A stretch of 64,000 bases of DNA, taken from Naegleria gruberi (taxonomy: Eukaryota). Below are positions 13,501 through 59,236 of the stretch, piece after piece. Every line of letters starts with the position of its first letter. The first letter of the stretch is position 1. The DNA lies in NCBI GenBank assembly GCA_000004985.1, contig GG738873.1; one strand, 5' to 3'. A program made the position numbers and the translations under genes. The notes beneath the pieces are model-generated. The model saw only the letters and a list, made by a program, of their open reading frames with translations, did not search any database and had not been told where the DNA came from.

Positions 13501-14662
13501 TAAGGACGACAGATTTGAAATTAACCAAGGTCAAACTATTAGAATTTTCGCAAGTCAAATCTTGGCCAACGATCTCGATGAATTCAATTCCACATCCACT
13601 CTTACTCTCACCAGTATTTCATGCCCAGACTCGACCTATTGTCACAAGACTCCAAGACAAGTTACTTACAATGGTTTACCAGCTGTTGAACTCGATTCTG
13701 ATTCTTCTACTTGTCAAGCTGATAAATTCAGATATGCCATGACAACTGGTATGGGTGCTGTCAGATATGCTGACGTCTATGTCGAATTTAAGAATTGTTA
13801 CTGTGCTGCCAAGATTGACTTTGTCTTTTTACTCGATTCCTCCAAGTCAATTGGTTCAACTAACTTTGATTTGATGAGAGATTTGTCCAAGAGAATTACT
13901 GGTAGAATGAAGATTGCTGACGATGCCATTAAGGTTTCCATTGTCAAATTCCACAACAATGGTACATTGGCTTTGAAACTCTCCTCTGATGGTACCTTAA
14001 TTAATAGCACACTCACAACTATGTCCTACGAGGCGGGAAGTACGGCTCAAGTGCCCGGACTCAGAGTTGCTGTTGATGCTTTGAGACCTGCCAATGGTGG
14101 TAGAGCTGATGCTGACAAGGTTATTTATATTTTAACTGATGGATTGGCAAACGTTCCATGTTCATGTACCTCTTGCAGAAATGAATGGCAAGCAAAGCCA
14201 TCAGTCTTTTACAATTCAATTCAAGTTAATATTTTAGGAAAGTACACTGGAAATACCTTGAATTCTCAATTGGACAATTTATGTGCTTACAAGTATACTG
14301 ATACTTCAGTTTTGAATGGACAAACTTGTTCATACTGTTCCTCAAGTAATTATGCCTATTGTTTACCATGTGCTGATGCTGTTCCAATTGCTTCAAAGAT
14401 TAATAGTTGGAAGCGTAATGCTAGTGGAGTTGTTCCAACTGATCTTGATAATCCTTACAATGGAAACAATGCTGTTCAATGGAAGATTGTTGCTATGGCT
14501 GTAGGTGATGCCATGTCAAATGTTTGGGGAGCCAGACAAATCCAAGGTATGAATTATGATTCCACAAGAGCTATGACTGTTTCTTGGACTGACTTGTCTT
14601 CAACTATGAGTGAAATTGTCGATCAATCTTGTAATCAAGTCACAACTACTGCTGCTGCTTAA
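7527..14662 (+). CDS. giant type II membrane protein: N-terminal signal-anchor, ~18 tandem cadherin-like/VCBS-like repeats, C-terminal vWA domain; exons 7527..7592, 7642..7668, 7711..7798, 7932..14662
   Basis: The 2224-aa ORF (7988..14662) starts at TTG and is open upstream to an acceptor at 7931. Three short upstream exons (66, 27 and 88 nt) with GTAAGT donors and CAG/TAG acceptors encode MPEILGNTTHAKHAVGFNVSLL/KGGTITQTI/IGAIITGLVVASTVATIILVSVGVGYSSP, which forms a TM helix. The body repeats ~100-aa units carrying the motifs (V)L(A/S)ND.D.(D/N)GD and Y(T/S)P..(F/Y).G.D.F.Y...DG. The C-terminus has DFVFLLDSSKSIG, a DxSxS MIDAS motif typical of vWA domains. Confidence 0.75.
8000..13500 (+). 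repeat. tandem ~300-nt coding repeats (cadherin-like/VCBS-like modules) inside the giant gene
   Basis: The motifs NDxDxDGD, APVAxDD and HW recur about every 100 residues through the ORF. Confidence 0.6.
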
Positions 14663-26750: not shown

Positions 26751-27021
26751 ATTATTATATACTATCTAGTCGTCCGATTATAATCAGCCAACTATTCCAA
26801 GAACCGATGATAGATGATGTTAGTCAAAAAATACTATTTATTATCCAGCCAGGAGAGAACACTTTTGTAGATGAGAAAGTGTTGGGTGTGATGATATTTT
26901 TTTATTTAATAAAATAAATATGTATTTTTATTTGCTGGCTAAAATACCGCCCAAATTATTTTCCACTGATTGCTTCTTCTTGTAATTGGGCCTCAAAATT
27001 TATTGCAATAAAACTAATTTA

Positions 27022-28128
27022 TTACCACTCTAGAGATTTATCTTGGGATGGCTTCTTATCTTGTGGTGTTGAGGCAGCATCTGTTTGAGATGAAGATGAT
27101 GATTGTTGTTCAATCTCTTTGGCCATTGCTTCTCTACCTGCTCTTGCTTGACCATGAGATGAGTATAAAGTAATTCTGGCAGTACCCTTGTTAAGACCTT
27201 CAAGGAAGACACATGCTCTACACAATTCTTGACTACTAATATAACCACACTTGACACAGTTCATCAAAGTTCTCTTTTTTACAGTGGAATCCTCTGAGAT
27301 TGTTTCATTGGTAAATTCAAATTGTTCAGCAGATTTAACAATATCAATAATTGTTTGAGGTCGTAATTGTTCCAAATCCTTGATAAGTTCTCTAGCATGT
27401 CCTCTGTAAGCATTTGGAGAATAAGAGCACTCAGTACTAAAGTAATCTAATTTCTTAAAATAGGCGTAGAGAACAATTTCCTTTTGATAAGTATACTTGA
27501 ATGGTTTGGCTCTTGGAATGCTAAAACCTCCTTCATCATGTGTAATAATATCAACACATCGTTCAAGTCTTCCAATATCTCCTCTAAGAATATTCATCAA
27601 AACAGTTTCAGCAATATCATCGGCATTGTGACCAGTTACCATCTTGTCAACCTTTAATTGTTCACATCCTCTATCAAGTGCTTGTCTTCTGAAAACTCCA
27701 CAGAATGTACAGTTATTCTTCAATCCGATTTGTTGAACAATTTCATCCATTGACCATCCATATAATTCTTTATAACTTAAAATTTTGAGAGGTACTTGAT
27801 ATTGCTCTCTATTTCTTTTAACTGTTTCTAAACTATCATCTCTATAACCTTTAATACCTTCATCAATACTCAACAAGTATAAATCCAATCCGTAATTATA
27901 TCTTTCATTCAAAACTTTCATAATATGTGCCAACGCTGTAGAATCCTTTCCACCACTAGCAGCAATAGCAACCTTATCTCCAGGTTTAAATAAATTATTA
28001 TTAATAATAGTTTCATGAATTTCCGTCTCGAACAAGTCAAAGAAACATTCCCTACAAATGAGGGCTCCGTTCTTTGGTCTTTTAAGTGCTGCGTTTCTAG
28101 AGTTGCAGTTTGCACAAGGCTTTGGCAT
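27022..28128 (-). CDS. ctu1: cytoplasmic tRNA 2-thiolation protein 1 (Ncs6/CTU1)
   Basis: It has a PP-loop SGGKDS and CxxC zinc-finger pairs (CANC...CREC; CVKCGY...CRAC), with full-length similarity to Ncs6/CTU1. Confidence 0.9.
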
Positions 28129-28342
28129 ATTTTTTTTGAATTTAAAATTTATTCTTTGTTGAGGCCAAATTTCAAAATTGCATATTCAATTATTAAAAAA
28201 TTGTTTATTAGGAAAGATGACCAGTAGCTTTATTGGAATTAATTTTTTATTGAAATAATCTTTAAAAAGATGCTTTACAAAAATATGAACCTTGATATAT
28301 TTCGACTAATTAGAAGAATAATCACCAAACAAGCCTAAAAAA
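28129..28342. promoter_or_regulatory. bidirectional intergenic/promoter region between divergent ctu1 (-) and F-box (+) genes
   Basis: 214-nt AT-rich spacer between two divergent ATGs, each in an A-rich context. Confidence 0.3.
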
Positions 28343-29422
28343 ATGCCACCAAGAAAGAAATCAGCCAAAAAGAAGGAAGAGGAAGAGAGTGACGAAGAAA
28401 TACTAGAAGAACCAACCGAATTTAATATTACAATAGATGATGATGTTAAACCTTTCACAAACGAATATGATGAATTAGTTAGATTTGATTCTCTCGAAAA
28501 GCTTCCTTCCGAAGTTGTATTTGAAATATTTAGCTTTTTACCTTCTATTCCATACTATTTTAAATTGCAATTGTTGAGTAAATTCTACAAGGAAAAGTTT
28601 CAAGAAATTATTACCCAAACAAAACATTTAGATCTTGCACCACTCAATCTTCAACATCATGCAATTTGGCCTAAAGTATGTCAAATGATCAAAGATTGTG
28701 GATCTTCATTAAAGAGTATTCAATTTGGAGAATTAAATTACAAATGGAATGAAATCAAGGAAGCAATTCTAAAGAAATGTTCCAAATTGGAAGAACTTGC
28801 ATTAGTAACTCCTACCATGTACTTTACTTCATTATTCAGAAAGGATGGCTCTTACTATGGATATTATGGTGGCCCTACTGTTGACTACTCTGAAGATAAA
28901 AAAAACAGAGATGTATGGTGTGATACTCTTACCACACTCAATGTGATTGGTTTAGAAAAGCCAAGAAAAGGCAGACGAAATCATAGTTACCTTCTCACAA
29001 GTGCCACTTTCAAATATATTCTTGAAAAATTCCCAAAGCTCAAAAATATTAATTTCATTCTTACTAATTATACAGAAATGCAAATTCAATCTCTTTATGA
29101 TGCAGTTGTAAGAAATAGAAAGAGATTACTTGAGTGGAGAGAAAAGGGTGGTAGTACTGATGGCCTTTATGAACGAACTGGAATTTGGTATGAAGAAGCT
29201 ATTGGAATTGTAGATTTTGATATTCCACACGATTTGAAAATCAATGTACAAGGAAGTATTGGAAAATTATCATCAATCGATGCTGCTAAAAATATTGTAG
29301 AAGTTTACAATATCAATCCAAATACCAAGTTTGAATTCTTATTCCAGAAGAATTCAAATGGTACATTACTAGATCAAATTATTGGTAGCCGTGCTGCTTA
29401 CAAACAAAAACATCAAGGTTAG
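28343..29422 (+). CDS. F-box / LRR-like protein; probably continues via a 38-nt intron into the ankyrin ORF
   Basis: An F-box is present at LEKLPSEVVFEIFSFLPSIP. The ORF ends ...CAAG|GTTAGT, a good donor at 29418. Confidence 0.7.
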   Translation: MPPRKKSAKKKEEEESDEEILEEPTEFNITIDDDVKPFTNEYDELVRFDSLEKLPSEVVFEIFSFLPSIPYYFKLQLLSKFYKEKFQEIITQTKHLDLAPLNLQHHAIWPKVCQMIKDCGSSLKSIQFGELNYKWNEIKEAILKKCSKLEELALVTPTMYFTSLFRKDGSYYGYYGGPTVDYSEDKKNRDVWCDTLTTLNVIGLEKPRKGRRNHSYLLTSATFKYILEKFPKLKNINFILTNYTEMQIQSLYDAVVRNRKRLLEWREKGGSTDGLYERTGIWYEEAIGIVDFDIPHDLKINVQGSIGKLSSIDAAKNIVEVYNINPNTKFEFLFQKNSNGTLLDQIIGSRAAYKQKHQG

Positions 29423-34976: not shown

Positions 34977-37228
34977 TTATTTGCATGAAGAGTTCTTACA
35001 TTGTTGTTTGAAGAAAACAGTTCCCTTCTCAATCAATGAAGAAACATATTCATCACTGGTTGGATACATTTTTGGCTTAATGAGAGATGAGACTTTGACT
35101 TGATGTCGAGGTTTTCCATAGAGATCAGCCAATGCTTCACTCGGTAATAAATACCATCTCAAGTGGCCGTACTTGGATTTGAAGCCATAGGTTTCTTCAT
35201 CTCCAAATAGTTTTGTAATTTCTTCCTCAAAATCCAAAGTAAAGTTATTATTCTTGACTAGCTCAACTGACTGATCGAGTAATTGTTGAGCATTTTGTAA
35301 AATATCGGCATAATTGTGTAATTTCTTTGGTTCTGAGGTAAATAATTGATTGAACTTTTCAACAAATTCCAATTGACCATTTTGGAAAGTCACATCTGTC
35401 AACTTCTTTCTGTGTTGTGTTAAAAACTTGGTGAAATTGGCATGAATTGGTGCTGAATTGGAATCGAAATTTCTGTGCATCCATTCGTTTGTCTTTTCAT
35501 TGAAAATATAATAAGGCAAAAACTTCCAACCATGCGTGGCCACAAAATCCATCGCATTAAGTATAAAGTCCACCATCTTGTCATCGAAAAAGTAATTGAA
35601 ATTCAATCGTATCCATCCAGGTTTCAAATGAACTAGTGAAATAGGACTCTTATACGATTCCAATAAGGCTCCCTCCAATTCGTGAACTTCCTCTTGTGAA
35701 ATACCGAGAATTTCCTCTCCATACGGACCTGCACAAGCACAGCCACTTCTCGTCTGAATTCCAAACAAATCATTCATGAGTAAACTAATGAAAGAGTGGT
35801 GCAAATAATAATCACCATGTTTGACTAGAAAGGAAAAGAAGGCCAATCTATCAACTCCTCCCATTGATGCTTTCTTGACCTGGTCCTAGAATGTGTAAAT
35901 TTGGATTCCTACTCAAGAAATCAAAAGCCCTCTGTCTGTAATTCTCCTCAATTTTTGTAATCAATTCAGCTCCAACATCTTGTTTCAATTTGAATGCCAA
36001 GGCACATCGAATTGAGCCAATAATATCTGGAGTGCCTCCTTCCTCACGTTCCTCAATGATATTGGTATAACTATGATTGTTGGCATCAACAAAATAGACA
36101 GTTCCACCAGCTGGTCTATTTGGAGTCTCTGGAAATACAATTTCAGTCAACTACTAGAGGAAAATTTCAATACTACTTACTATTTTGGAATAGTTTCTTC
36201 TTGGCAACTAAAACACCAGGTGTTCCAGGGCCTCCAATAAACTTGTGTGGTGAAATAAAGATGGCATCTTTCTGATACATTGGATCATTTCTTGGATTCA
36301 TGTCAATTGGAACGTATGGAGCTGCTCCAGCATAATCAAAAAAGCACAATGCTCCAAATTCATGACTTAACTTTGAAATTCGATCACAATCTGTCAAAAC
36401 TCCGGTAACATTTGAACCAGCACTGAATGAACATATCAAAACTCGTTTTCCATTCTTGTACTTTTTCAAACATTCTTCCAAATATTCAAAATTCACATTT
36501 CCAAACTTGTCTTCAATAATTTGCACCACAATGGCTCCAACTTCTCTCCACGGCAAAATATTACTATGATGTTCATACGGTGATATAAACACAACAGGAA
36601 TCTCTTCATGACCACTAGCATTCTGAACTAGTTCTCTAATACCAATACAATGTACCAATGTTGAAATAGCCGAAGTACTTCCACTTCCTTGAAATAAGAC
36701 AACATCCGAATCTTCACCACCACTCAATCTTGCATTCACACATTCAGCAATAATTCTCCTAGCATCCTCTCTGAAATGAGTTGTCTGAAATCCACTAAAC
36801 GATGAAGTAGTATGTGTATTTGCATAGGTAGGTAAAACTTCCTCAAACAAATAATCTTCAATGAATTTGAGTGGTTTTCCAGAGGCAATATAATCACAAT
36901 AGGTTAGTGGAAGAAATCTATTTTCCTCAAATGGAGTTCTAAAGACTGCTTCACTTCCAATGATATTTTCATGAATATTCTTGATGAGGGAAACCTTGCT
37001 TTTCACAGTTTGCTTTCTGACACTTTCCTTTTCAAATTGTAAAGTTTCGTCTATTATCTTTTCTAATAACTTGTATTCGATAGAGTGTTCATCAAATGGT
37101 CGACTACTTCTTTGAGCCATCGTTCTCTTTGGACGAGTTAGTACAAGTGTCTTTTTGAACTTTTCAATTTCTTCGTCTGCATTCACCTTACGTGAGGATG
37201 ATGTAATTGTAATTTGTTTGTTTCCCAT
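34977..37228 (-). CDS. class V aminotransferase / cysteine desulfurase-like PLP enzyme; minus-strand exons 37228..36181, 36128..35880, 35854..34977 (last junction uncertain)
   Basis: A PLP-lysine context SPHKFIGGPGTPG is present. A 52-nt GTAAGT..TTTCCAG intron (36129..36180) restores ...LFQN|K|TPNRPAGG. RSGCACAGPY resembles the SufS R.GHHCA.P site. ORFs 35851..36150 and 34977..35864 are offset by one frame; see findings. Confidence 0.75.
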
Positions 37229-37977: not shown

Positions 37978-40900
37978 TCATCTTCTCCTTCTTCTTAATT
38001 GGTCAAAAACTGAATTATTCAAAATATCCTGTGCTTGAGGTCTGATGGCACTGTCCTTTTCCAACATTGATAAAGTCAAGTCAATGATATATTGAGAATA
38101 TTGACCAGGCTCTTCCATTTTCTTCTTTAATAATTGTGAAACTTCCTTTTGATCCTTAGTGACATAGAGTTGACTAATTGATGTAAAAGTGTCCTTAGTT
38201 ATTATTTGATAAATAGTTACACCTAAACTGTAAATATCAGTGTTATAGAAATACTTGCCACCATATCCCAATTCTTTAAAAAACAATTTAAAATTAATGT
38301 CAGTTATCTCTTAATTACTTACCAGGTGACATGAATAGAGGAGTGCCAGCATATGAATTATTGGTAGAACCTTGATTTGCTTTGGCCAATCCAAAATCTG
38401 CAATAACTATTTCAATATTATCCTTATCTAAACTCTTTACAAAAATATTGGATGGTTTGATATCTCTGTGGATGAGTTTCATTGAGCTGTGAATATAATC
38501 AAGAGCGCTACACATTTGGAAAATGATTTGCAATAATATCTGTTCTGAACATGTAGAATCATCTTTGGTCAATTGAACCAAATCTCCCAATTCATAAAAG
38601 TCCATATCAATACACAACAATTGATCCTTACTAATAAAAAAGTCATTAACCTTAAGAATATTTGAATGGTGAATATTCATCAATTGAGTTCCTTCCTTCA
38701 TAAAATTATTCAACTCCTCTGTTGATGTGTATTTGATTACTTTGATTGCCTTCATGGTGTTTGTTTTGGAATCAAAAGCTTTGAATACTGAACCAAAGGC
38801 ACCTTGACCAATTTTAACCAAGTCCATATATCTTGAGAGTGGATTGAAGGATTGACTGCTACCTCCAGTAGATGAGATACTAGTGAGAGGAGTCAAAAAC
38901 ATACTGGCATCTGATGGGAAATCACTTGATTGACCAAGCTCAATATTTTGAATAGTTTGAAGTTCGTACGCTTTTTGAGATTTTAATTTCCAAACACAAA
39001 CTGAAAATACCACTACAATAATAGCTATGATAATTATTGCAATCAACACAACTGGAATTGTAACACCAAGGATGATACCAAGAGTTTGATCATCAATGGA
39101 TCTGGGAATTGAGTTAGAAACATTAGGTGCATAATAATAAGCAAGTTCTTGAACTGTGAATAGAGATAAGTGATTAGTGACACATTCCAAATTGAAATAG
39201 AGTTTACCTTCCTCTCTTTTGACAATTGTCATTGATTGAGTCAAAATACCAGAATTAGACCAAGTTTGTTTCACTGAATCATAGTAACTGCATGAAATGT
39301 TAGTATCTGTCTTGTCATTTGTAAACAAATTATTGAACTTGATTGAAATTGGTTTTGTAAGGCCACTGACAGGTACTTGAGCTCCACTTTCTTGACTATA
39401 AATGGATAATTCAAAAATTGGTCTATTTTCAAGAATGTTATTTAGTGTGGTATCCTTCTTGATCAATGAAGAGCTGTAGAATAATTTGACATTGTTTGGA
39501 ATACTTAATTGAGAAGTAAAATCGGATGGGAAACTGGCCGAAACTTGAATAGTATCTTCAATCATTATAGAAATTTCCTTTCCATTCAATTGAGTTTCCA
39601 AATCCAGACTTTCAAGTGAATAAGTCCCCAATGTATTATTCGTAGTCAACCCACTCAACAATAAATATTTAACTTGATATCCTACAATGAGTGATTGTTT
39701 CTCTAATTTTGAGGAAAATCTCTTAATCAAAATAGATTGTAAATTTGATAGCTCAGTATAGTGAGTTTCGTCCAATAGAGTTAATCTTAATGCAGAAGTA
39801 TAGTACTGCTTGGATTTGTCCATTCCTGAATAAGTCCAATCAAGCCACTTTACAAGATTATCAGTCATGGAATTGATGGAATTTTCATCTTGTAAAGTGA
39901 GATCGAGAATTGAGAAAATATCACAAATTATTGGAAGGACCATTTGAATAAGTTTTTCATCGACTTTGGATGTCAAACTCTGTACATTATTTAGGAGTGA
40001 TAGCATTTCATTCAAATTGGAGTTTAGAGTTTGAATTTGAGAATTGGAAGTTTCGGTAAACAATCTTCCAGTGAAATTTTCAAAATTAGTTTCGTTTAAA
40101 AGGAGAATTGACATGAGGGAATTAATGGAATTGACAGTTTCAATCTTCAATGGTTCTACTCTTTTTAAAGTATAAAATTGATCATTTACATAATTCAGTT
40201 TAGACGAAATTGAGTTTGTAATCGAATTTGGAGCTTTCATTGTAATTGTTCTTGTAAGCGTTCCAATAGATCCATATCTATTGACAAGTTTTACAACGAG
40301 ATTTAAATCTGAACCATCTCTACTGAGTGGAAGTCTGGTTACAAGGTTTTTCTTTAGAGTGTTGGAAAGAATTGATATTCTTTCTCCTTGTTGAGAATGA
40401 ATTTCCATTACATAATTCGAAACTGGTTCTGAAGGTAAATTGAGACAAGAAATGGTCATGAAGCTTTCGAATGCATAATTAACAGCTTCGTTTCTTAAAT
40501 TGTAATAGGAACATGAAAATCTTGGAGTATTGTCAATTCTTGTGGAAAGTGAAATATTCGATTGACCAAACTCATTCCAAGTTGACAACTCAAATGAATA
40601 AAATTCACCATCAATCAAATATTCATTTCCAATATTCAACTCTGATGTAACAGAATTACCACCAACATTTCTAATGGTTTCTCTATTTCTCAAGAATTCG
40701 TCCACATTCTCACCCACTGCAACATTCAATCTTCCTTCCACCAATTTCCAACTTGTTGTAACACTAGAAGTAGAAGAAATAAGAGTCTTTAAAACCAATG
40801 GACGATGACTAGCATGAATAGGAGGTCTATAAGGGCTACTAAGTTTTGGAGCTTGAATGGATGAATCAGTCAACTTGATAAAACCAATGAAATTGTAAGG

Positions 40901-43900
40901 AATTGAAACGAACGAGTTGGTATAGTAAACTATTAAATTGATAGAGTACATTCCTTCAGATAAATTCAAAGATGCTGGATTAAAAGTCAACGATTGTTGA
41001 GTATTTTGACTTGTACATAAATTTGAAGAAATGGTCAACTTGGTCAAAGGATCAACTTGGAAACATGAATAAGAATAAGTGAAATAATCCTTAATAGTAA
41101 ATGTCGTAATGAATGGATCATCATTTTCAAATGTTATAGTAATGGCTCCATTTCTAATAGAATGTGTTCTATTGACTTGTGTCAAGACATGATCCAATCT
41201 GTCAAATGTTTTGTAATTGAAATAGTATGGAAGTGATAAACTTTCATATGTTTTCAAGTGTAATCCAACTACTTGTGCATTAGAATTGTATTCACTATCA
41301 ATTAGTTCATTATTATAAATGTTGACTAATCTAAACATTTGCTTTTGAAAAACTTCAGCATTTAAAAGACTGAAAAATCCAGAAAAAGTATACGAAATGG
41401 AACTATTCAATGAATTCAAGCTAGATTCTACAATACAATTATGTCCAACACATGAAAATGGAGCATCCTTAACATTATCTCCAAACCAAGTGAAAGAAGG
41501 TGGTAAACTCTTGAGATTTGGTTGAACTCTTGTAATATCTCTTGAACTAGTTGCATAATTTAACAAGTTGACTGAATCAAGTTTCAAAGTGAGTACTTTC
41601 AGATAAGAGGCATCCAATGGAATGGTATTTAACAAGGAAATTGGAATGTTGATAATTGACTTGTTGTTATATTGTAAAAGATGGGATGAAATAGTTTGAG
41701 GACAATTTTCACATGTCCACACACGTTGAACTCGTTTGAAGGAATGGTAATAGTCATCTGTGTTGGATCTAACAATCAAATCTTGACTTGGTGGGAGAGT
41801 GGTGAGTAAATCATTGATTGAGGAAACAAAACTTCTTCCTTTCATAATGTTTAAAGATTCAGTTGAGTTGACCATCAATGAAATGTTATATCTGCTATCA
41901 GAATCAAGTAAAATTATTGATCCATGTACAATTGAGTGATCATATCCGAGTAAAATCTTGAAATAAGAACTAGTCCACAAGCATTGAACAAAATCCTTCT
42001 CACCAAATCTTGACTGTTCGTCCAAATTCATAATTTGATCACATGAGAAAATACTACCTGCTTGTTTTGAAATATTGAGAATGTTACTGAATGGAGAATA
42101 GATTAAAGCATTAGGAACATCTAGAAGGACATGATGATGTTGACATTTGTTTCCAGCAAATCCTTCATTACATAAACAATTATCAATTCCAATACAGCTA
42201 CCTCTCGATGAGCAAACATTTGAATTATTGGAATAGAGACCAAAACAATTGCTGTGTTGACATTCCTCGCCTCCATATCCCGTGTTACAATTACATTGAT
42301 TTGGAGCTTGACATTTACCTCTTCCATAACATACAGAGCTAGAATTGGATAGAATTCCAAAACATGAAGTCAAGGAACAATCCTTCTCTTTCCAGCCCTG
42401 ATTACATGTGCAGTTATCATAGGAGCTACATTGACCATTACCTGAACAAATGTATGAAGTATTAGACGAAAGTACATTGTAACATTTTAAAAATTCACAT
42501 CTACTACCACCCCATTCTTTTGGACATTTACAATCACCAGGTCCATCACATGTTCCGTTGTTTTGACAAACACTAACTCCAACAGATTGACCAGCACAAG
42601 TAAAATCATCACAAAAAGCACCAAAATAACCTATTGAACATGTACAGTTATTGTAAAAGTTACAGACACCGTGTCCAGAACATACACCTGGAGATGTTTT
42701 CACAATTCCATTACAATTATATAATTCGCACTCATTGCCATAGTATCCAAATGGACAGGAACAATTATTGTAAGCTGTACATTGACCTCTTCCAGAACAA
42801 ACTGAAGAGTTGGAAACTGCCATACCAAAACATGTGAAATTCATGCATGCACTTCCAAAATATCCCTCCACACATGAACAATTGTTTGGTTTAATGCAAC
42901 TTCCATGAGAGGAACAAACAGATGGGTTGGTATTTCTAATTCCAAAACAATCAAACTGTTCACAATTAGTGCCATTGTAAAGAGCTGTGCAGTTACAATA
43001 GTTTGGAGATTGACATGTTCCTCCACCTGAGCAAACATTTGTGGCCTGGTAATTGACTCCATAACAATCAAATTCTTCACAATTAGCTCCATAATAATTT
43101 GTATTGTAACATGTACATTCCAAGCTTGTACTGTTAAAGTATTTCTGGCTACTTCCACAAGATTGGAAAGACATGAGTCGAATAACATTATTTCCAGTAT
43201 CTGCAATGTAGATTTCACCAGAATTTCCTAATGCTAATCCTTCAGGATCACTGAATTGAGTATTGAGAGCAGCCATGAAATCTGGAGAGCTTCCTTTAGA
43301 TCCTGTTCCTGCAAGAGTTGAAATCTTACCATTAGTAACCTTTCTAATTCTCTGATTTTCCTTATCAATGAAAATCAAGTCACCTGTCGAGGTCACTTCT
43401 ATGGCGCCAGGCTTGTTTAACGAAGCTGACAAGGCACTTCCTCCATCTCCTGAAAAACCAGCAATACCATTACCTGCCACTGTTGAAATAATTCCACTTT
43501 GTAAATCAATTTTACGAATTACATGATTGATATTCTCAGTAAAATACAGAGCTCCAGAATATAATGCTATTCCATCAGGACCATTTAATTTGGCATTGAC
43601 TGCCAAATTTCCATCTCCTGAATATCCTGCACTCCCTGTTCCAGCAATAATATAAACATCCAAACCATCAATTTTAAGAATCATATTGTGTAAATAATCT
43701 GTCAAGTAAATAATGACTTTGTTGGGGTCATTAATCATGACGAAATGATTACTAGTGAAACTAGCTAGGTTATAGGTTGTTGGTGATGAAATTGGACCTC
43801 CTGTACAAGAACCTGCAATAAGAGAAACTGTGTATCCAGAATCCACTCTCTTCACAGCACAATTATTCTCCAGAAAGAATATTTTAGAATCGACCTGTCG

Positions 43901-45298
43901 TTGTAAGCCATAGTTTGGAGTGGTAATAACAGGACCAGTGGTACTAGTTGCACTGGATGAAGTTGTTTGACCAATGATACCTGCAAGATTGGTAATTATT
44001 TTGGAGGAGAGATCAATACTTCTCACTGCATAACTATTGGAATCAGCAAGTGTCAACACTCCATTCAAATAATAAACACTTGTTGGTTTTGAAAGGAAGG
44101 CAGAAAGAGCAGGTATTCCACTACCAAATTGTTGACTACTTGTACCTGCTATAGTTGAAATGGTGGATGCTTGTCCATCAGACACTGTTGCCTTTCTTAT
44201 TCTATTATTTCCCAGGTCAGCAATGTAAATATTTCCATCGCCATACACAACATTTGATGGATTTGAAATGCAATTTGTGGCAGCCGACCCATCATTAAAA
44301 CCTGGTTGTAAATTAACACCCACAAACTCAGTAATGAGATAGGGACTTTGAATAATGTTTTTTCTCCTGATTGTGTGACCAAGTGAATTGCAAATATACA
44401 TGTATCCACTTGCAATAGTCAACCCTTGAGGTCTTATTAAATCGCTATTACCAACGACTTCAGATACAGTATTGGAAGACAGTTTACAAACTCGATCATT
44501 ATTAGTATCAGAAAAATAGAGATTGTAATCATCACTTGAGAAGAATACTCCATACGGTGAAGCCAATTTCAAATTTAATGGTGGTTGAGTCATGTCACTT
44601 GATCCACTCATACCAGCAATACCAACTACTCTAATCACCATTGGAGTGCTATCCAATTGAGTTATTTTACGAATTATATGATTACCAGTATCTGCAAAAT
44701 AAATCTCTGTATTTGCTGGATTAATTGTAATACCACTTGGACTACTCAACTTGGTTAGAAGAGCAATTCCATCCCCAGAAACATCTGCTACTCCAGTTCC
44801 AGCAATTGTTGTAATTGTACCATTCACATAAATTTTCCTAATACGGTGATTTCCAGTATCAGTAAATACAATGTCACCATTATTCATCAAAATTATGCCT
44901 CTAGGTTGATTAATTGCAGCATTGACAGCTGGACCACCATCTCCTGAGAAACTATTTGCCACGCCATTGCCAGCAATTGTTGTGATCTTTCCAGTTGAGT
45001 CAATCTTTCTAATTCTATTGTTTGATGTATCGCAAATGTACATTGGATAAATTGTGTTAGGTGTAATTGCAATACCAGATGGTCCTTTTAATGAAGAGGC
45101 AGTTGCTGGTAGATTATCTCCAACAACATTGCCGCCACCTGCCAAAGTTGTCATGTTAAAAATTGGCACCGAACAATGACTCTCAACACATGTCAAAACA
45201 AACACAACTGCTAGCAATAGAATGAAGGGAACTACAACCAGATTGTGTACGGACACATGCCTGTCCATGCGTGTGTGAGAGCGATGTGAAAGAGGCAT
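37978..45298 (-). CDS. receptor protein kinase: signal peptide, NHL-repeat beta-propeller region, ~10 EGF-like modules, large Cys/Asn-rich stalk, TM helix, Ser/Thr-type kinase; minus-strand exons 45298..38323 and 38273..37978
   Basis: It has a signal peptide, about 14 NHL-type repeats (G.G..G.SGDGG.A..A.LN.P.GI......Y..D..N..IRKI), Cx..C.C..G..G..C EGF-like repeats, a TM segment (ILGVTIPVVLIAIIIIAIIVVVF), and GxGxxG, VAIK-like, HRDIKPSN and DFGLAK kinase motifs. A 49-nt GTAAGT..TTTAAAG intron (38274..38322) rebuilds the APE motif as GTPLFMSP|E|LGYGG. Confidence 0.85.
42130..43200 (-). repeat. tandem EGF-like (C-x-C-x-x-G-x-x-G-x-x-C) coding repeats in the receptor kinase ectodomain
   Basis: Roughly 31-aa Cys-spaced units recur (CQSPNYCNCTALYNGTNCEQFDCFG ...). 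Confidence 0.6.
43200..45150 (-). repeat. NHL-type beta-propeller repeats (coding) in the receptor kinase
   Basis: GDGG.A..A.L..P.G.A and YIADT.NN.IRKI-like units repeat. Confidence 0.55.
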
Positions 45299-46417: not shown

Positions 46418-47867
46418 TTAGACCTTTCCATTTTGACTAACTGGAACAACATCGAACGACAATTCATTTTCCAAGAGAATTCCCTTAATAACAGTTGATG
46501 GTCCAAGATTTTGGGTGGCATTAGAGAGGACAATAGTACCATTGGCAAACCATGATGACATATAACCAGTGTAAGAACCTTGAATTCTTTCCAAGAGAGC
46601 ACCAGGATAAGCTGGGGTAGCAACACTCTTACGGAGTTGTTCAATGATTGGAGTGAAAATAATTGGGGCATTCTTGAGAGCAATATTGTTAGCAACTGGA
46701 GAGTTCAATGAAGCCAAAGTGATCATTACAAAATCAAGTTCTGGAACAACCAATGGTTTGGCATTGTAGCCGTAAACAGAACCTCCCTTGGTCAAGTAGA
46801 ACAAGTTATTTTTGTCATCATACATGGTTTCAAAAGCACCCAAACCAATGGTGAATGTAGCATCGTTAGCCAAGAAGGTTGGCATGATGAATTGTCTCAT
46901 GGCATCCTTTGAAATTGGAACAGGGCACGCAGTGGCATTGTTAAGAGAGCTATAGGTGAAACAAGAGAAGAATTTTAACATATCATTAGCAGTACTGTAC
47001 ATGCCACTCTTGGGCCAACAACATGGTCAAATAATCTGGATCTCTACCAACAACCATCTTGGAAAGAATATCAGAAGAGTAATCAAATCCAGTGTTAGTC
47101 ATGCCCAACTTGTCGAAAATGTTAGTCTTACAGAATTCTCTGAATGATTTACCTGTAATCAATTCAAGAACTCCACCCAAAATGGTAAAGTCAACATTAC
47201 TGTAATAACGATCACTTATGGATGGAGCCATAAATTGCAACAAGTCAACTGTGGTCTTTCTGTATTCATCAAAAGTCATACTGCAATTATATGGATCACA
47301 AGGAGAAGTTCTAGACAAACCAGCACCGTGACTCATTAATTGTCTGAAAGTAATCTTGTTAGTTGCTGTCGTAAAGTACTTGTTAGTATATTGAAAGTCT
47401 TTAACATAGTTAGTGATTGGTTCATCAATACTCTTAATAAGACCCAATTCTTGAGCAATCAAAGCAGCCATACTGGTAAAAACTTTAGTGACAGAGGCAA
47501 CTCTAAAGATGGAATCGGCAGTTGGAGTTTCAGTTTCCTTACCCTTAGTACCAACTTGACCAACACCTTGGTTCATAACAACAGTATCTCTATATTTGGC
47601 AAGAATAATTCCGGATCCATTCTTTACACCATTGTCAACCAAAATAGATTTAACCATATTATTCTTGAGTTCTGTTAAAGCAGATTGAAGAGTTGAAACA
47701 TCAATTTCTGCAGATCTTGGAAGAATGTTACATTTAGGGTTTGCATCAGATGCCTTCAATACTCTGACTTGAGACTTGAGAGATCTAGCACTTGCCTTTG
47801 GATTGACATCAGAACTTATCTTAGTGTAAGCAACGAACCAATCAAGACCTGGCATCCAGAAGTACAA
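46418..47867 (-). CDS. beta-lactamase/transpeptidase-like serine hydrolase with C-terminal lipocalin-like domain; minus-strand exons 47867..47052 and 47008..46418 (43-nt intron proposed)
   Basis: It has SxxK (FRVASVTKVF), YSN, HGAG and GMYSTANDM motifs. Overlapping ORFs 46986..47867 and 46418..47002 differ by one frame. A GTTGGT..CCCAAG intron at 47009..47051 would give ...ILSKMV|SGMYSTANDMLKF. Confidence 0.7.
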
Positions 47868-49012
47868 GTTGCCACATTTGAGAATCTAAGAACTTCATTT
47901 CCGTAACCTCCCTTAAACAATGTCAAAGAATCGATATATGCAGCTTCTTGAATATCTCTAATAATGAAAGCATTATTTGGTTGGTAATCCAAATCAAAAT
48001 TAACATAATTTCCACCCAAATTAATGTTCATAATAGTTTGACCATCTTGATAATACAAAGTGGCATTGGTTCCATCAGCATTACACAAATAGGTACCTTG
48101 GTACTTGGCTTGATCTTGAGCTGGAGGTAAAACAAATGCTGGCATGACAGAAACATATTGACTCATAAGTGTTCCAACAGCCTTAGCATAAATTTGTTCA
48201 GCAATATATGTAGCAAAGACATCTCTATTGGAAGAAATTGAAATGATTGCAAACTTGTATTCTGGAACAAAGATCATGTGAGTAGAAAATCCGAGAACGC
48301 TTCCTCTCTTAGATCTCTTCCATACGTTATACTTGCTATCGTGACTCATTTCAAAGGCAAAACCAGTTGCATTTTGAGCGTCTGGAGAAATATATTGAGG
48401 AGTGAAAAATTCACGAACAGTTTGACGAGTAAGAATACTTTCATCATTCAAGATTGAGGAGGCATAATAGGTCAAATCTTGCAATGTAGAGTAAGCATCC
48501 ATGGAACCTTCACACCAACCAGACTTTAATTCAGAATCGAATGTGATAGTGGCATTGCCAGCATAGCTAGGAGCAACATGAGTGGAAACAGTGAGGAGAT
48601 CAGAGACGAGACCAGAGTTGGACATGGAGGCACTTTTCATTACATCCTTAAGATTAGAAGAGACGGATTGACCATTAATTTTAGCAAGAGCTTGACTCAA
48701 CCAACAATAACCAAAGTCAGAATAAACTGGTACAGAGTATGGTTCATGTACAACTGAAGAATGTCCAGGAAGACCAGAAGCAGCCATTGCCTTAACAACT
48801 TCATCATTAGAAAGATTACAATCAAATAGTTTGCAAGGAGCTTGTCTTCCGAGACCACTCATGTGTGTGGACAATTGTCTCAAAGTAACAGAGGAAATTG
48901 GAAACTTGGAGAATGTACTAGTGAGAGCATCATCGAGTTTCAACTTTCCAGCATCTCTCATTCTGAACATTTGAGTAGCAACCAACAATAACGAAAATTT
49001 CGTAAAAAGCAA
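47816..49012 (-). CDS. beta-lactamase-like paralogue lacking the N-terminal ~100 aa and the catalytic Ser (LFTK in place of SVTK); pseudogene or non-catalytic paralogue
   Basis: It aligns to the neighbouring gene from the helix after SxxK through the lipocalin-like C-terminus. The frame opens only at 49030 after a TAG. There is no room for an upstream exon before the next ORF at 49037. Confidence 0.5.
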   Translation of the reverse strand: MLFTKFSLLLVATQMFRMRDAGKLKLDDALTSTFSKFPISSVTLRQLSTHMSGLGRQAPCKLFDCNLSNDEVVKAMAASGLPGHSSVVHEPYSVPVYSDFGYCWLSQALAKINGQSVSSNLKDVMKSASMSNSGLVSDLLTVSTHVAPSYAGNATITFDSELKSGWCEGSMDAYSTLQDLTYYASSILNDESILTRQTVREFFTPQYISPDAQNATGFAFEMSHDSKYNVWKRSKRGSVLGFSTHMIFVPEYKFAIISISSNRDVFATYIAEQIYAKAVGTLMSQYVSVMPAFVLPPAQDQAKYQGTYLCNADGTNATLYYQDGQTIMNINLGGNYVNFDLDYQPNNAFIIRDIQEAAYIDSLTLFKGGYGNEVLRFSNVATCTSGCQVLIGSLLTLR

Positions 49013-49036: not shown

Positions 49037-51271
49037 CTATTTTTTTTTATTTGCCAAAATTTCTTTCAATTTTTTGAATACTGATTCTCTCTCCTTTCCT
49101 TCATCTGTAAACGAAAAACCATACAACAACACATTTGAAGGTGGAATACGTGTATTTCTATTTTGAACTCCAAAATCCTCAAATTCTTTTGACTCATCAT
49201 TCCATTGGAGCACAGAGAGATGAATTCTCTCATCATAATACAATAAATATTTTCCAACCTCATAATAATCTTGGCTCATTTGAGTTTTAAATGCAACCAG
49301 TGTTTCCAATTGTAAATGTTTTAGAAATTGTTTTTTCTTATCAGGAACAAAGTAATCATGAGATGAAATTTGAATTCTACTTCTTCTAGTGGTTTCTTCA
49401 TTAATGGTGACAGAGTTATTCGAAATTGAATTTTCTGTCAACCAAAAATCCAAATTGGTTTCATTGGAAAATAAAGACTTTGTTTTTTCTATAAAATAAT
49501 CTTCATACCATTTCCAAGTTGCATCTGCAAGCATTGATTTGATTTTGTTTAATCCTTTTAATAAATCTAATTCGAAAGCTGGTGGTGTGATAATGTCAGG
49601 AACATTGTTAGGTACAACATTATTTCTAAATATTTCAATAACTCCATCCTTTCCATTCAATCCTACCCATTTAGAATTATCATAATTAAATTCACGAACT
49701 TGCAAAACAGGTTTGTCATTTTCCATTTTAATTTTAAATCCATGAAAATCAGAAATTCCTTTAAATGTATTGACATTATCTTTAAATAAGGATTTAAAAT
49801 CAAACATTCTTTCTAAAAATGATATTTCAGGAACATTTTTAGAATAAATTTCTTTCTTTTTTTCAATAAATTCAAGAGGACTATGACATGAATTATTTTG
49901 AAAATAAATTGAATGAATTGAAAAAAATTGATCTATATCAGTATGAGTATGTCCAACAATCATGGTGCCAATAATTACTTTTTTTACCCACCCCAAACTA
50001 ACTAATAAACCTGCGAATGCTACAGCGTACTTGTTTTTGAGTTCTTTTGAGCAATTGTCTGCTTGTAAATACAGAATTGATGGTAAATTTCCTTTTTCTT
50101 TTTTTAAATTATATAAATATTCATACAGAACTGTTAGTGCCAAATTGGCTCCACCTTCACAATTAGGAAGTTTTAATTTAATCTGATATTTTCTTCCATG
50201 TGAAATTAGTCCATAATTTGATATGTTTAATTTTTTAACAGCATTACTATTTTTAGTAGCATTGGCAATTACTGGATATGGTGTTGCTTGTGCACCATCA
50301 ATTATTATAGATAAATACTTGTTTGGATTAGCTATTGCTTTTTCTATTTTTTTTTTAAAAACAAATCTTTCTCCACAACATTCATTAATATGTTTGGCTC
50401 TTGCTTTTTTTGCTTTTTCTTGCTCAACTTCATTTGTTGATCTCTTTAAATTATTTAATCTAGCACACTCATCACATTTTCCTAATCTAGTATTTTTTGG
50501 TAATTTAATATTGGGAAATAAGTTTTTTGCTTGTCTTTTAAAAGTATCCAACCTATAGTAAGCACCTTCTTGTGATGAGACATATATTTCATATATTGGT
50601 TTCCAAGTATTGAAACCAGTAATGTGCATTTCATTTGCATTAGGTAATGGTTCAGCAAAGTTTTCTGCGAATACTGAAAACCAAGATTTAAAATTTGTGA
50701 GCTTTTCACTATCTTCCTTAATTGGTGAATGTTGTTCGTCAATTTTAGATAAATCAGTCTTTTTGGATTTTTTCAATTTATATGAAGAAATACCATAAAT
50801 ATTTTTGAACATTATTTCACAAACAGGTTTTCCGTTAATTGTATAGTTGTTTGAGTGTTGTGTAATATTTCCAACAAATTTCAACTTGTCTTTTTCCTTC
50901 AATCCTGCATAGAATGTTCTTTTTTCAGTTATTTCCGAAATTGTAAAATTAGTATTGCAATGCTTAACGCAACAATTTTTCAAGATACATGAGGAAATCG
51001 CATTATCATTCAATAATTGTTTTGATTTTTTTCCTAATTTTTCCTCTGGTGATCTTAATCTTCGTTTTGTTGATTTGTATGTACGTTTTGGTTTTGTATT
51101 AATATTGGCAATCTCTGATGAATTAGTATTATTATTAATATTTTTATCACGATTTAATTTTAAATAAAGATTAATTGGTGATTCATCCTCTAATTCCGAG
51201 TTATTAAAATCTTGATAATTATTATCATCATTGTCCTGTTGAAAGTATGAAAGTAATTCACTTGCAGACAT
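49037..51271 (-). CDS. 744-aa ORF with DDE-transposase-like motifs and Cys-rich N-terminus; candidate transposase or domesticated derivative
   Basis: Motifs include SIIIDGAQATP (cf. the Harbinger/PIF first D), ~78 aa, YLQADNCSKE (cf. the DNA second-D motif), ~39 aa, then the acidic cluster GHTHTDIDQ. The N-terminus has CILKNCCVKHC...CDECARL. The ATG sits in an A-rich context and the ORF is intact. Confidence 0.45.
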   Translation of the reverse strand: MSASELLSYFQQDNDDNNYQDFNNSELEDESPINLYLKLNRDKNINNNTNSSEIANINTKPKRTYKSTKRRLRSPEEKLGKKSKQLLNDNAISSCILKNCCVKHCNTNFTISEITEKRTFYAGLKEKDKLKFVGNITQHSNNYTINGKPVCEIMFKNIYGISSYKLKKSKKTDLSKIDEQHSPIKEDSEKLTNFKSWFSVFAENFAEPLPNANEMHITGFNTWKPIYEIYVSSQEGAYYRLDTFKRQAKNLFPNIKLPKNTRLGKCDECARLNNLKRSTNEVEQEKAKKARAKHINECCGERFVFKKKIEKAIANPNKYLSIIIDGAQATPYPVIANATKNSNAVKKLNISNYGLISHGRKYQIKLKLPNCEGGANLALTVLYEYLYNLKKEKGNLPSILYLQADNCSKELKNKYAVAFAGLLVSLGWVKKVIIGTMIVGHTHTDIDQFFSIHSIYFQNNSCHSPLEFIEKKKEIYSKNVPEISFLERMFDFKSLFKDNVNTFKGISDFHGFKIKMENDKPVLQVREFNYDNSKWVGLNGKDGVIEIFRNNVVPNNVPDIITPPAFELDLLKGLNKIKSMLADATWKWYEDYFIEKTKSLFSNETNLDFWLTENSISNNSVTINEETTRRSRIQISSHDYFVPDKKKQFLKHLQLETLVAFKTQMSQDYYEVGKYLLYYDERIHLSVLQWNDESKEFEDFGVQNRNTRIPPSNVLLYGFSFTDEGKERESVFKKLKEILANKKK

Positions 51272-51510: not shown

Positions 51511-53501
51511 ATGTCTTCAAGTGAATCATCACAATCAACAAGTAACGAAATACAAGAAAATGTTGTTGGTGATAATATTTCATCATCAAAATCCAACAAT
51601 AATTTACCATCGTCCACTAGTACTTCTGAATCAACAATTGATGTTCATGAATCGACACCCGATTCATCTAAAATTCCGGAGCAAACAACTAACAAGCAAA
51701 ATTCAGAAGATGAGAACTCCTTTGAAACCTATTACAAATTAGGGGACCCTGTAAATATTAAGGGAAAACCAACTGATCTCTTTAAAAGCATTACTATCAA
51801 GAATACTGGAAACCAACTAATCAGTGAATCTGTTGTACGATTTAAAAAATCCAACATTTCATCATTATTTTACATTTTAGGAATTAAAAAATTAAAAAAG
51901 TCATTTAAGGTGTGTGGAATTTTAGAAACGGATTTCAGTAAAACCACTGATCTTGATCACGAGTGGTTGGAATTGGTTGACGAGAATGATAAGAGTGTAA
52001 AAACATTTAAAACAAGAATTATTAAATTAAATGAACAACCAACCAAAAAAAATTCCAAAAGCAATTCTGTTGATACCTCCTCCAAGAATGAAGGTAGAAA
52101 ATATGAAACAAGATCATCTAAAAAGAAAAAAACAGAAGAAGAAGAACATGTACTTGAACAAGAACAACAATCTAATTCCGAATCTGAAGAAGAAGAACCA
52201 CCTCCAAGAGTAGCCAGAAAAAAATCAACTAGAAAATCAAGTAAAAAATCTGAATCAGAAGAAGAAGAAAAAGAGGTTTCTCCAAGAGTAGCCAAAAAAA
52301 AACAACAACAAGAAAATCAACAGGTAAAGTAGGAAGGCCAAAAAAGTCCGAGACTGTTTCAGTGGATGATGATGACATTTTATTTTCAGATATTTTGTCC
52401 AATAATTCTAAACCTAATTTAAATTCAAATACTATTAGTAACAGCTCAGTCAAATCAGTCACCAAACCAACCAAATTAAAAAATAATTCCAATAATTATG
52501 ATGATAATTCAAATAATAATTTAAATAATACTTTAATCAAATATGATGAAAATTTAAATACAAATCCAAATACTAATAATAGAAATATTTTCAGTAACAA
52601 CAAATTTAATAATAATAATAACAATAATTTAAATTATAATAATACTAATAATATCAAAAATTATGGTAATAATAATTATAATAATTATGATAATGTTATT
52701 GACTTAAATAACTCACATAATTCAAATAATTTTATTTTTAATTCAAATACTAATACGGAACAAAATTGTTACAACAGAAACAATTTCAATTCAATTAATA
52801 ATAATTTTAACAATAATTACAATCCCAATAATTATGAAAATGTATCAATTTACAATTCAAACAATAGAAATAATTTTTTGAATTATAATAATAATTTTGA
52901 CAATCATCATTTAAGCAATGATAATTCTAATAATTATTCAAATAATTTCAGTGCAAATAAATACAATAATATGAATAGTCATAATAATTATAATAATTGG
53001 AATACCAATGACAATATTTCAAATAATTATTTAAATAATAATAGAAATAATTTATGGAACAATTTCAATTCTAATAACAACTATCATCCAAATGCTAATA
53101 ACAATTTTACTAATTATCCAAATAATAATACTAACAATTTTAATAATTATCCAAATAATAACAATTTTAATAATTATGCAAATAATAATAATTTAAATAA
53201 TTATGCAAATAATAATTATAATAATTGTAACAACAATACAAACAATGGTCCTATTAACCTCCATAACAACACGATGATGAGTGTGTTGCATCATGTCAAT
53301 AATATGATCGACAATGAAATGGATTTCGAATTAAAAATGATGATTAACAAATTAATGGATAAATTAAACCAAACAGAGGAAAAAAACACTTTATTGAAAT
53401 TAATTGGTTCAACCAGGAATTTACATTATAGAACCCCAGGTAATTCCGAGAAAAACTCAAAATTGAAAGAATTACTATTCAAACTTCTTAATGATGAATA
53501 A
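51511..53501 (+). CDS. low-complexity nuclear-type protein: Ser/Lys/Glu-rich N-half plus Asn-rich (prion-like) C-half; two ORFs joined near 52294..52362
   Basis: ORF 52362.. starts at GTG and has no in-frame ATG, while its frame is open back to 52254. An internal repeat (PPRVARKKSTRKSSKKSE versus SPRVAKKK/TTTRKSTGKVGRPKKSE) indicates that the second frame is coding from the A9 run at 52294-52302. Confidence 0.7.
52440..53270 (+). repeat. Asn-codon (AAT/AAC) rich low-complexity coding tract (N/Y/F-rich prion-like domain)
   Basis: The tract runs from NNSNNYDDNSNNNLNN through to NYANNNYNNCNNNTNN. Confidence 0.7.
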
Positions 53502-58087: not shown

Positions 58088-59236
58088 TCACATAAAGTCA
58101 TTGTTGGGAAGGAAATTGCTGCTATCTGACAACATTTTGGAATCCTCTTCTACTATTTGGTCCTGATGATATGTGGATTGTGTTGGAGAGGCAATTGTTT
58201 GGAAAAGAGGGCTCATCTTCTCAGGCAAAGCCTCCGTAAAGTTTCCTTTAATATCTAGTTGTTGTTGATGTGAAGGAAAAGTGGTACTAATTTCCAATAG
58301 CTTGGATGGATTGTCATGGAAAAGTACTGCAGCAACAAGACTATGCATTGTTCTAAAACTATTCTTCATCTAATTTAATAATTAATTAAATAATTATAAT
58401 ACAATTAATTTCCTACCTTGAATATTTCATTAGCAATTCTAGTAATAGTATAGTATTAATAAGTAATAACAATAATTATGATACCTACATGATTCCATTC
58501 ACATTAGGAAGTTGGCAGAGAAGAGAAACATCAGCTGGTGAATTAATATTACCATACGCTAGTAATGGCACTGTAAAGCCTTCTTCTTTGATCTTGAACA
58601 ATAACTCCTTTGGAACAAACTCTCTCCGAGCAAATTCATCCAATTGCTCATCATTAAGTTTCACAATATTCAGTGCACCCATAGTAATGTTCCTGAGTTG
58701 GTGAATGATTGAAGCCATCTCTCCAAAGTGAGTCCTAATAATTTTGGCTCCTTTAGCAATGTTTCTGAGTGCTTCTGGGAAGGTATTGGCTGGATTAATG
58801 AATGTAATATTGGAGAGTGATTCAGTGCTTTTTGAGAAGGAATGTTCATCAACAATTGATTGATCATGCTCATCAATAATAGTAACACCCAATTCATTAC
58901 ACAATTTAGCTTCCATTACATGCCCCTATAATTTGCATTATTTAAATAACATTGGACATAGTACCAACCTTCCTTATTCTTGCTATGAGTGGTAATTCAG
59001 AACAGACTTGATTAATTTCGTTCAATTTACAATAATCAATCAACTCATTCTAAATGAGTGTAGAAGCAACCAAACATCATCAACAATGCGTAATATTAAT
59101 ATTGCTATTAATTATTATAATAACTCACTTCTTGACCAACCATCAAGCAACATTTAACTTGGTTAAACTTTTGTGCCAATGCAACAGCTAGAGTTGCCTC
59201 TTCAACTGAAACCACCTCGAACACAACAAGTTTCAT
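58088..59236 (-). CDS. PdxS/SNZ (PDX1) family protein, probable non-catalytic pseudoenzyme; minus-strand exons 59236..59129, 59049..58969, 58925..58489, 58438..58417, 58369..58088
   Basis: Five exons (introns of 79, 43, 49, 47 nt with GTGAGT/GTTGGT/GTAGGT donors) give a 309-aa protein. It aligns to PdxS: LPLIARIRKGHVMEAKL to IPVMAKARIGHIVEA; FPEALRNIAKGAKIIRTHFGE to [46 protein letters not shown] to [38 protein letters not shown] to AKAIVEATTHFTD. The catalytic K81 is replaced by R and K149 by H. Confidence 0.8.

Follow-up and report, generated by a model that had tools for sequence, protein, structure and literature searches.

A window of 64,000 nucleotides from the heterolobosean amoeba Naegleria gruberi (assembly GCA_000004985.1, contig GG738873.1) carries, on the minus strand at 58088-59236, a five-exon gene whose product resembles the pyridoxal 5′-phosphate (PLP) synthase PdxS/SNZ/PDX1. 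This gene is probably the N. gruberi copy of a genus-wide, catalytically dead PDX1/PdxS homologue that is maintained by selection, arose independently of the plant pseudoenzyme PDX1.2, and is better seen as an orphan with a new role than as the helper of an active PDX1. The features of the gene are as follows; canonical residue numbers are those of a bacterial PdxS (P0058) and coincide with B. subtilis numbering.

58088..59236, minus strand: whole coding span of the putative PDX1/PdxS-like pseudoenzyme, recognized by family match; five exons, 309 codons plus stop.
59129..59236, minus strand: exon 1, residues 1-36 (strand 1, helix 1, strand 2), with E7 (GAG, 59218-59216) replacing D24.
59050..59128, minus strand: intron 1, 79 nt, GTGAGT..TTTAG, not found in N. 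lovaniensis or N. fowleri.
58969..59049, minus strand: exon 2, residues 37-63, C-terminal part LPLIARIRK, with R60 (AGA, 58980-58978) replacing K81.
58926..58968, minus strand: intron 2, 43 nt, GT..AG, phase 0.
58489..58925, minus strand: exon 3, residues 64-209, barrel strands 3-8.
58439..58488, minus strand: intron 3, 50 nt, GTAGGT..CTAG, phase 2; position and phase common to three Naegleria species.
58417..58438, minus strand: exon 4, a mini-exon of 22 nt encoding (I)IANEIFK, in which A-N-E (58434-58426) is what is left of the GSG phosphate-binding loop.
58370..58416, minus strand: intron 4, 47 nt, GTAGGA..TTAG, phase 0; common to three Naegleria species.
58088..58369, minus strand: exon 5, residues 217-309 and stop codon TGA (58090-58088); the last barrel helices, then a low-complexity C-terminal extension of about 50 residues.
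58091..58105, minus strand: the last five residues, NNDFM, which N. lovaniensis and N. fowleri share exactly.

The spliced coding sequence (CDS) of 930 nt, in host DNA of 32% GC, encodes 309 amino acids. Translation is taken to begin at 59236, the first in-frame ATG downstream of an upstream stop, and GT..AG borders are found at all four introns (79, 43, 50 and 47 nt). The 22-nt exon 4 is required because the reading frame would otherwise be lost, and its IANEIFK pairs without a gap with VGSGIFK of PdxS in HMMER comparisons with PDB sequences. In N. lovaniensis and N. fowleri, a phase-1 intron lies five codons downstream of the intron 2 site. An earlier note on this DNA had placed a five-exon gene at 58088-59236, which are exactly the limits of the start and stop codons. 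Its description of an end-to-end alignment with PdxS was overstated, as the N-terminal PdxS helix of about 20 residues is absent and some 15 residues are missing between strand 2 and helix 2. The C-terminal extension it reported does exist, measuring about 50 residues (approximately 260-309, past the last PdxS-aligned residue) and not about 60.

Family membership is supported far above chance. The Pfam model SOR_SNZ (PF01680) matches the spliced protein with 64.6 bits (cutoff 27 bits; E = 1.4e-17). Among PDB sequences searched with HMMER, PdxS from T. maritima is the best match (2iss; E = 5e-27, 98.4 bits), followed by A. thaliana PDX1.2 (6hx3; E = 7e-23, 84.8 bits), with PDX1.3, yeast Snz1, B. 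subtilis PdxS and others further down. The NCBIfam equivalogs for functional PdxS (EC 4.3.3.6) are not reached, at 100.1 versus 395 bits for NF003215 and 95.4 versus 438 bits for TIGR00343. On its sequence, the product of the five-exon gene is a strongly diverged member of the PdxS/SNZ/PDX1 family. An AlphaFold2 (AF2) model, made on the N. lovaniensis orthologue and not on the window protein, from an alignment of 61 family members, has a mean pLDDT of 79.8, a pTM of 0.77 and 205 residues at pLDDT of at least 90. Its barrel core is confident; low confidence applies to lineage-specific inserts (approximately residues 40-60, 110-145 and 172-186) and, from residue 310 onwards (N. lovaniensis numbering), to the C-terminal extension. 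Foldseek matches this model in the PDB to Plasmodium Pdx1, Arabidopsis PDX1.3, Snz1, PdxS from B. subtilis and G. stearothermophilus, and PDX1.2, with target-normalised TM scores of 0.8-0.9, root-mean-square deviations of 2.2-3 Å and 27-29% identity, and without preference for PDX1.2. The model predicts that the PdxS (β/α)8 barrel is retained.

The machinery held by this barrel is a different matter. In PdxS, K81 holds the ribose 5-phosphate (R5P) adducts in the P1 site, K149 holds the PLP product, and E105 sits between both lysines, where its mutation impairs catalysis (PMC3024981). Two independent alignments, by HMMER and MAFFT, agree on the residue calls and place a lysine at neither equivalent position. 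The motif PVMAKARIGH is PLIARIRKGH in N. gruberi (K81 to R60), MIRTKGEAGTGN is IIRTH----FGE (K149 to H129, codon CAC at 58730-58728), and VIMDV is VVFEV (D24 to E7). Thus the earlier note was right that the Schiff-base lysine had become Arg and D24 had become Glu. For the second lysine it had offered His/Phe, of which the His stands; the Phe of IIRTHFGE is a loop residue, because the loop following H129 is 4-5 residues shorter than the canonical one.

Further replacements include E105 to Asp (D84), H115 to Ile, R138 to Asn, and A212 and G214 to Tyr and Asn (A212-G-G214 is Y187-G-N189), while D102 is retained as D81. The phosphate loops are similarly affected, with G153-T-G155 deleted from exon 3 and G235-S-G237 changed to A-N-E, so that what remains of them has become acidic or, as with Tyr at 212, bulky. 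All 32 canonical representatives examined are invariant at the positions replaced in N. gruberi. Of the 80 positions that are at least 90% conserved among these representatives, the N. gruberi protein retains 32 and the Naegleria proteins overall retain 32-40, mainly in the structural motifs RxGH..EA, DE, EAL, PAD and IF. The termini have been lost as well. The flexible C-terminal region (R288) is required for PdxS catalysis, and the N-terminal region forms the Pdx2 interface (PMC3024981). The N-terminal Pdx2-docking helix is absent, as the N. gruberi protein begins 3 residues before strand 1 and those of N. lovaniensis and N. fowleri 12, and the canonical ..RGW tail (R288 region) is replaced by the unrelated extension of about 50 residues. 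Because every element of the machinery is missing or altered, no PLP synthesis is expected of the Naegleria protein, which is predicted to be catalytically dead. The label of pseudoenzyme candidate given in the earlier note was well chosen, in that the catalytic machinery is gone and the gene appears real and under selection.

The nearest matches to the gene come from its own genus. When exon 3 alone was compared exhaustively by HMMER with 1.84 billion representatives, only four matches fell below 1e-10. Highest among them rank N. lovaniensis XP_044544696.1 (P0002, 364 aa) and a fragment (P0001) from contigs L004 and L005, where the neighbouring proteins are exactly N. fowleri FDP41_001891, FDP41_001893 and FDP41_001894. 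The N. fowleri gene was spliced by hand, and the N. lovaniensis CDS, when rebuilt, reproduces the NCBI protein exactly. The three Naegleria proteins have in common E24, R81, D105, Phe or Ile at 115, Y212, loss of the GTG loop (deleted or replaced) and x-N-E at 235-237 (A/G-N-E), together with the ARIRKGH motif, the missing N-terminal helix and an extension whose last residues, NNDFM, directly precede the stop codon. Position 149 is His in N. gruberi and Arg in N. lovaniensis and N. fowleri, and the lengths of the P1- and P2-site loops differ between the species (MAFFT). Two introns share position and phase in all three, phase 2 after ..NG(I/V) and phase 0 after the mini-exon. The latter is 22 nt in each species (L003 10991-11012 in the NCBI model of N. 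lovaniensis, L004 1345-1366 in N. fowleri).

Comparison of the window with the N. lovaniensis and N. fowleri loci revealed no micro-synteny beyond the gene itself; only a longer-range linkage to CTU1 is kept in the three species, at about 30 kb in the window.

27022..28128, minus strand: CTU1-like gene (NAEGRDRAFT_36958), a single-exon open reading frame (ORF) with 100% identity to the N. gruberi protein.

The linked tags are C9374_009345 and C9374_009362 in N. lovaniensis, and in N. fowleri the gene lies between FDP41_001891 and FDP41_001893, with CTU1 at FDP41_001876. The unshared immediate neighbours fit deep divergence, as the N. gruberi protein is only 36% identical to the other two. By homology the gene is the N. 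gruberi member of a genus-wide dead PDX1/PdxS family. The CTU1 region has a further match outside the genome assemblies: window positions 26951-28576 are 99.1-99.2% identical to contigs L001 and L002 of metagenome run ERR1078381 (PRJEB11402), an identity that points to an N. gruberi-like strain in that environmental sample.

The family also bears the marks of selection. Between N. lovaniensis and N. fowleri, dN/dS is 0.185 at a dS of 0.83 over 356 codons (Nei-Gojobori), and three neighbouring genes compared between the same species give 0.17, 0.23 and 0.09. This agreement with the neighbouring genes suggests a constrained pseudoenzyme and not a decaying pseudogene. In N. gruberi, no damage is seen in the ORF, in any of the eight splice sites, in the mini-exon or in the terminal motif, despite the 32% GC of the host DNA. 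These comparisons indicate a selected protein-coding gene under purifying selection.

The closest functional parallel is PDX1.2 of Arabidopsis (At3g16050; PDB 6hx3, 7lb5), a member of the same family with the same fold, likewise kept as an intact gene. In PDX1.2, K98 is replaced by R100 and K166 by Q168, and the protein forms mixed dodecamers with the catalytic PDX1.1 and PDX1.3. It is heat-induced via an upstream heat-shock element (HSE) and restricted to eudicots. Both proteins have Arg at the first lysine and have lost the second (Gln in PDX1.2, His or Arg in Naegleria), and the changes D24 to E, H115 to F/I and G237 to E also occur in both. Unlike PDX1.2, the Naegleria proteins have no N-terminal helix, their loops carry large indels, and they gain a new C-terminal extension ending in NNDFM. 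In phmmer comparisons, PDX1.2, catalytic PDX1, bacterial PdxS and other lysine-less forms all match them equally well, at about 75-87 bits per domain, while the N. gruberi and N. lovaniensis proteins score 137 bits against each other. As these scores reveal no special affinity, the replacements shared with PDX1.2 are best read as convergence. The resemblance to PDX1.2 proposed in the earlier note is therefore genuine at the first lysine but not one of descent. With its host a heterolobosean and PDX1.2 restricted to eudicots, the Naegleria pseudoenzyme appears to have arisen independently. No 3-unit HSE is conserved upstream of the gene in the three Naegleria species, which is weak evidence as Naegleria promoters may follow other rules; the single one-mismatch HSE match in N. 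gruberi (-289) falls within the neighbouring ORF.

Compared with catalytic PdxS/Pdx1/Snz1 (EC 4.3.3.6; 2iss, 2nv1, PDX1.3 5lnr), the Naegleria protein shares the (β/α)8 barrel at 27-29% identity and the RxGH..EA, DE, EAL, PAD and IF motifs. In contrast, K81, K149, D24, E105 and H115 are gone, as are both phosphate loops, the N-terminus to which Pdx2 docks and the tail with R288. Other members of the family have also shed their lysines. Coemansia species (Kickxellomycete) encode up to three highly divergent PdxS-like proteins without K81 and/or K149 (K81 to M, H or R), for instance P0007, P0008 and P0018 (KAJ1816425, KAJ1847143 and KAJ1822082), all annotated as hypothetical. In bacterial metagenome contigs, PdxS-like genes (L006 5001-5864, L007 5001-5864 and L008 4214-5071) have Arg or Asn at position 81, two of them also lack K149, and all lie between lnt and gltX. 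Genes for ZapD, CoaE and prepilin peptidase adjoin them and give these contigs a gammaproteobacterial look, and the PdxS-like genes may represent a bacterial family of PdxS pseudoenzymes. Several unnamed metagenomic lysine-less forms appeared as well. The occurrence of such forms in Coemansia, bacteria and metagenomes suggests that loss of catalysis in the PdxS fold is recurrent. Those of Coemansia and bacteria differ from the Naegleria proteins in their substitutions, lack the NNDFM tail and are no nearer to them than canonical PdxS is. The literature consulted contains no study of the Coemansia or lnt-gltX proteins.

A CN_hydrolase gene adjoins the Naegleria PDX1-like gene, and the bacterial lysine-less genes adjoin Lnt, which has a CN_hydrolase domain. 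Horizontal gene transfer from bacteria was considered for this arrangement and rejected, as the CN_hydrolases of the two settings show no relationship (best E 0.9) and the bacterial proteins lie no nearer to Naegleria than canonical PdxS does.

What a PDX1 without catalysis does in Naegleria depends on the source of vitamin B6. A minimal medium for N. fowleri contains pyridoxal, according to PMC8068756, which cites Nerad et al. 1983. N. fowleri also expresses pyridoxine 5′-phosphate oxidase (PNP oxidase), a salvage enzyme. A scan of the 64-kb window, a very small sample of the genome, revealed no second PdxS and no PdxT, and the literature searched contained nothing on de novo B6 synthesis in Naegleria and no paper linking Naegleria with PDX1. 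As Naegleria appears to live on salvaged B6, an orphan is likelier than a helper. An orphan pseudoenzyme with a new non-catalytic role is thus tentatively favoured over a PDX1.2-like helper, at close to an even chance. The fuller proposal, that Naegleria lost de novo B6 synthesis and that the dead barrel with its invariant NNDFM docking peptide serves a second, partner-independent function, is possible but held a little short of that. The window also contains a class-V aminotransferase-like, PLP-dependent gene spread over two ORFs (34977-37228, minus strand), a reminder that the amoeba has need of PLP from whatever source.

As an orphan, a PdxS barrel without its lysine relay could work as a non-catalytic scaffold or binding module. 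NNDFM, carried on a disordered linker of variable length, would be a short docking motif. It might dock onto a partner protein, or onto the former active-site face of its own or a neighbouring subunit. Docking onto that face would echo the flexible C-terminal tail of canonical PdxS.

The strongest competitor, though an unlikely one, is a role like that of PDX1.2, in which a catalytic PDX1 (and PDX2) encoded elsewhere in the genome would form mixed dodecamers with the dead protein, which would stabilise or tune PLP synthesis. The earlier note had raised such a regulatory role on condition that an active PDX1 exists elsewhere in the genome. PDX1.2 itself acts in this manner, and the replacement pattern (E24, R81, F/I115, E237 and loss of the second lysine), the retained barrel and the purifying selection are all as a helper would have them. 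However, N. fowleri bears the gene and yet its minimal medium includes pyridoxal. Erosion is far deeper than in PDX1.2, with 32-40 of 80 conserved positions kept and large loop indels, and the N-terminal Pdx2-docking region is absent. A conserved HSE, a special affinity to PDX1.2 and another PdxS or PdxT in the small genome sample of the window are all missing. P1 and P2 loops that vary in length between species would be unexpected if they had to match the active-site geometry of a catalytic partner. Trypanosomatids, which are discobans, offer a conceptual precedent for selected dead enzyme homologues in protists: PMC5201418 and PMC3663545 describe the S-adenosylmethionine decarboxylase (AdoMetDC) prozyme and a deoxyhypusine synthase (DHS) paralogue as dead paralogues that activate live partners. 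These paralogues differ in having unrelated folds and pathways and a demonstrated live partner.

It is very improbable that the gene is a functionless and still undisrupted relic, left to decay once de novo B6 synthesis had been lost. Erosion has gone furthest in N. gruberi (32 of the 80 conserved positions remain and the N-terminus is shortened), the N. gruberi protein set has no product of the gene and expression evidence is absent, as would suit a relic. Against this, dN/dS in the comparison of N. lovaniensis with N. fowleri is 0.19, no different from that of neighbouring genes, and the ORF is unbroken in all three species even though identity falls to 36% between the most distant of them. 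Every splice site is intact, the 22-nt exon is conserved and an identical NNDFM stands directly before the stop codon. Least probable of all is a surviving enzyme with other sugar-phosphate or imine chemistry, for example through the genus-specific K63 of ARIRKGH or through D81 and R127. In its favour, (β/α)8 barrels often change function, D102, R147, E134 and RxGH are kept and a new conserved Lys lies three residues past position 81. Against it, each phosphate site is either destroyed or of a length that varies between species (GTG deleted or replaced, GSG to xNE, A212 to Y, H115 and R138 lost), and the NCBIfam equivalog models yield only a quarter of the score that they demand.

Several considerations weigh against the preferred reading of a selected, dead and probably partnerless PDX1. 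The splice junctions were placed by homology and GT..AG borders alone. The selection figure comes from N. lovaniensis and N. fowleri, as dS of the N. gruberi lineage is saturated relative to these two at 36% identity. One preprint speculates that Arg at position 81 might still contact R5P. A component of a minimal medium does not prove strict auxotrophy, and the medium in question was for N. fowleri and not N. gruberi. The absence of catalytic PDX1 and PDX2 concerns only the 64-kb window. Finally, docking by the tail is only conjectured, and the extension has low confidence in the AF2 model.

Annotation of the family has lagged behind. In word-indexed and exhaustive searches, a collection of 15 billion proteins contained no N. 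gruberi product of this gene, though other N. gruberi proteins were present. The word-indexed search depends on shared 5-mers, and queries with the spliced protein and the N. lovaniensis orthologue retrieved nothing beyond the query. With no matching protein in the collection, the N. gruberi gene appears to be unannotated, and the 22-nt exon is plausibly the reason. The N. lovaniensis orthologue is a ‘hypothetical protein’ at NCBI and carries the automatic UniRef name ‘pyridoxal 5′-phosphate synthase (glutamine hydrolyzing)’, EC 4.3.3.6, an enzyme name that is contradicted by the loss of the catalytic residues. The N. fowleri orthologue (L004 322-1771, L005 3720-5169) lies where the tag FDP41_001892 would fall. 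A protein of that name did not surface in the searches, which returned only exon-sized, prokaryote-style calls of 113, 178 and 90 aa (Logan/ENA).

The remainder of the window is varied. A giant adhesin-like ORF of 2224 aa (7988-14662, plus strand) has 14 Big_9 repeats, bacterial-type Cadherin_4/5 repeats and a C-terminal VWA domain, and thus brings bacterial-type domains into an amoeba genome. In an ORF of 2327 aa (38315-45298, minus strand), teneurin-type NHL and EGF repeats are combined with a transmembrane segment and with a protein kinase domain, which reaches the end of the ORF and so probably continues past an intron; NHL/BTB genes also flank the N. lovaniensis PDX1-like gene. Three consecutive ORFs on the minus strand (46418-49012) probably belong to a single gene that introns or frameshifts have split; the one scanned, at 47816-49012, matches the Beta-lactamase (serine hydrolase) family. 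An ORF of 744 aa (49037-51271, minus strand) matches DUF7869 (E = 4e-43) and is probably derived from a mobile element; after it, a stretch of 25-28% GC at 50-54 kb holds an extremely Asn-rich ORF (52362-53501). Scans of the 64-kb window for tRNAs and Rfam families gave no matches.

We know of no studied non-catalytic homologue of PLP synthase other than PDX1.2. The Naegleria family would add a second, independent dead PDX1 in a distant eukaryote, of different architecture and possibly partnerless, in which D24E, K81R, H115F/I and G237E have been reached again. That the same replacements were reached twice suggests a preferred route by which the barrel can be inactivated while its fold is kept. 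Left uncorrected, the enzyme name of the N. lovaniensis orthologue, together with the apparent lack of an N. gruberi entry, could lead metabolic reconstructions to ascribe de novo B6 synthesis to Naegleria, N. fowleri included, in error. If Naegleria is truly without a catalytic PDX1, an action like that of PDX1.2 would be impossible and the fold would have acquired a new function. Should the protein indeed be an orphan, the PLP-synthase fold would have a second function in the human pathogen N. fowleri, one that is absent from its host.

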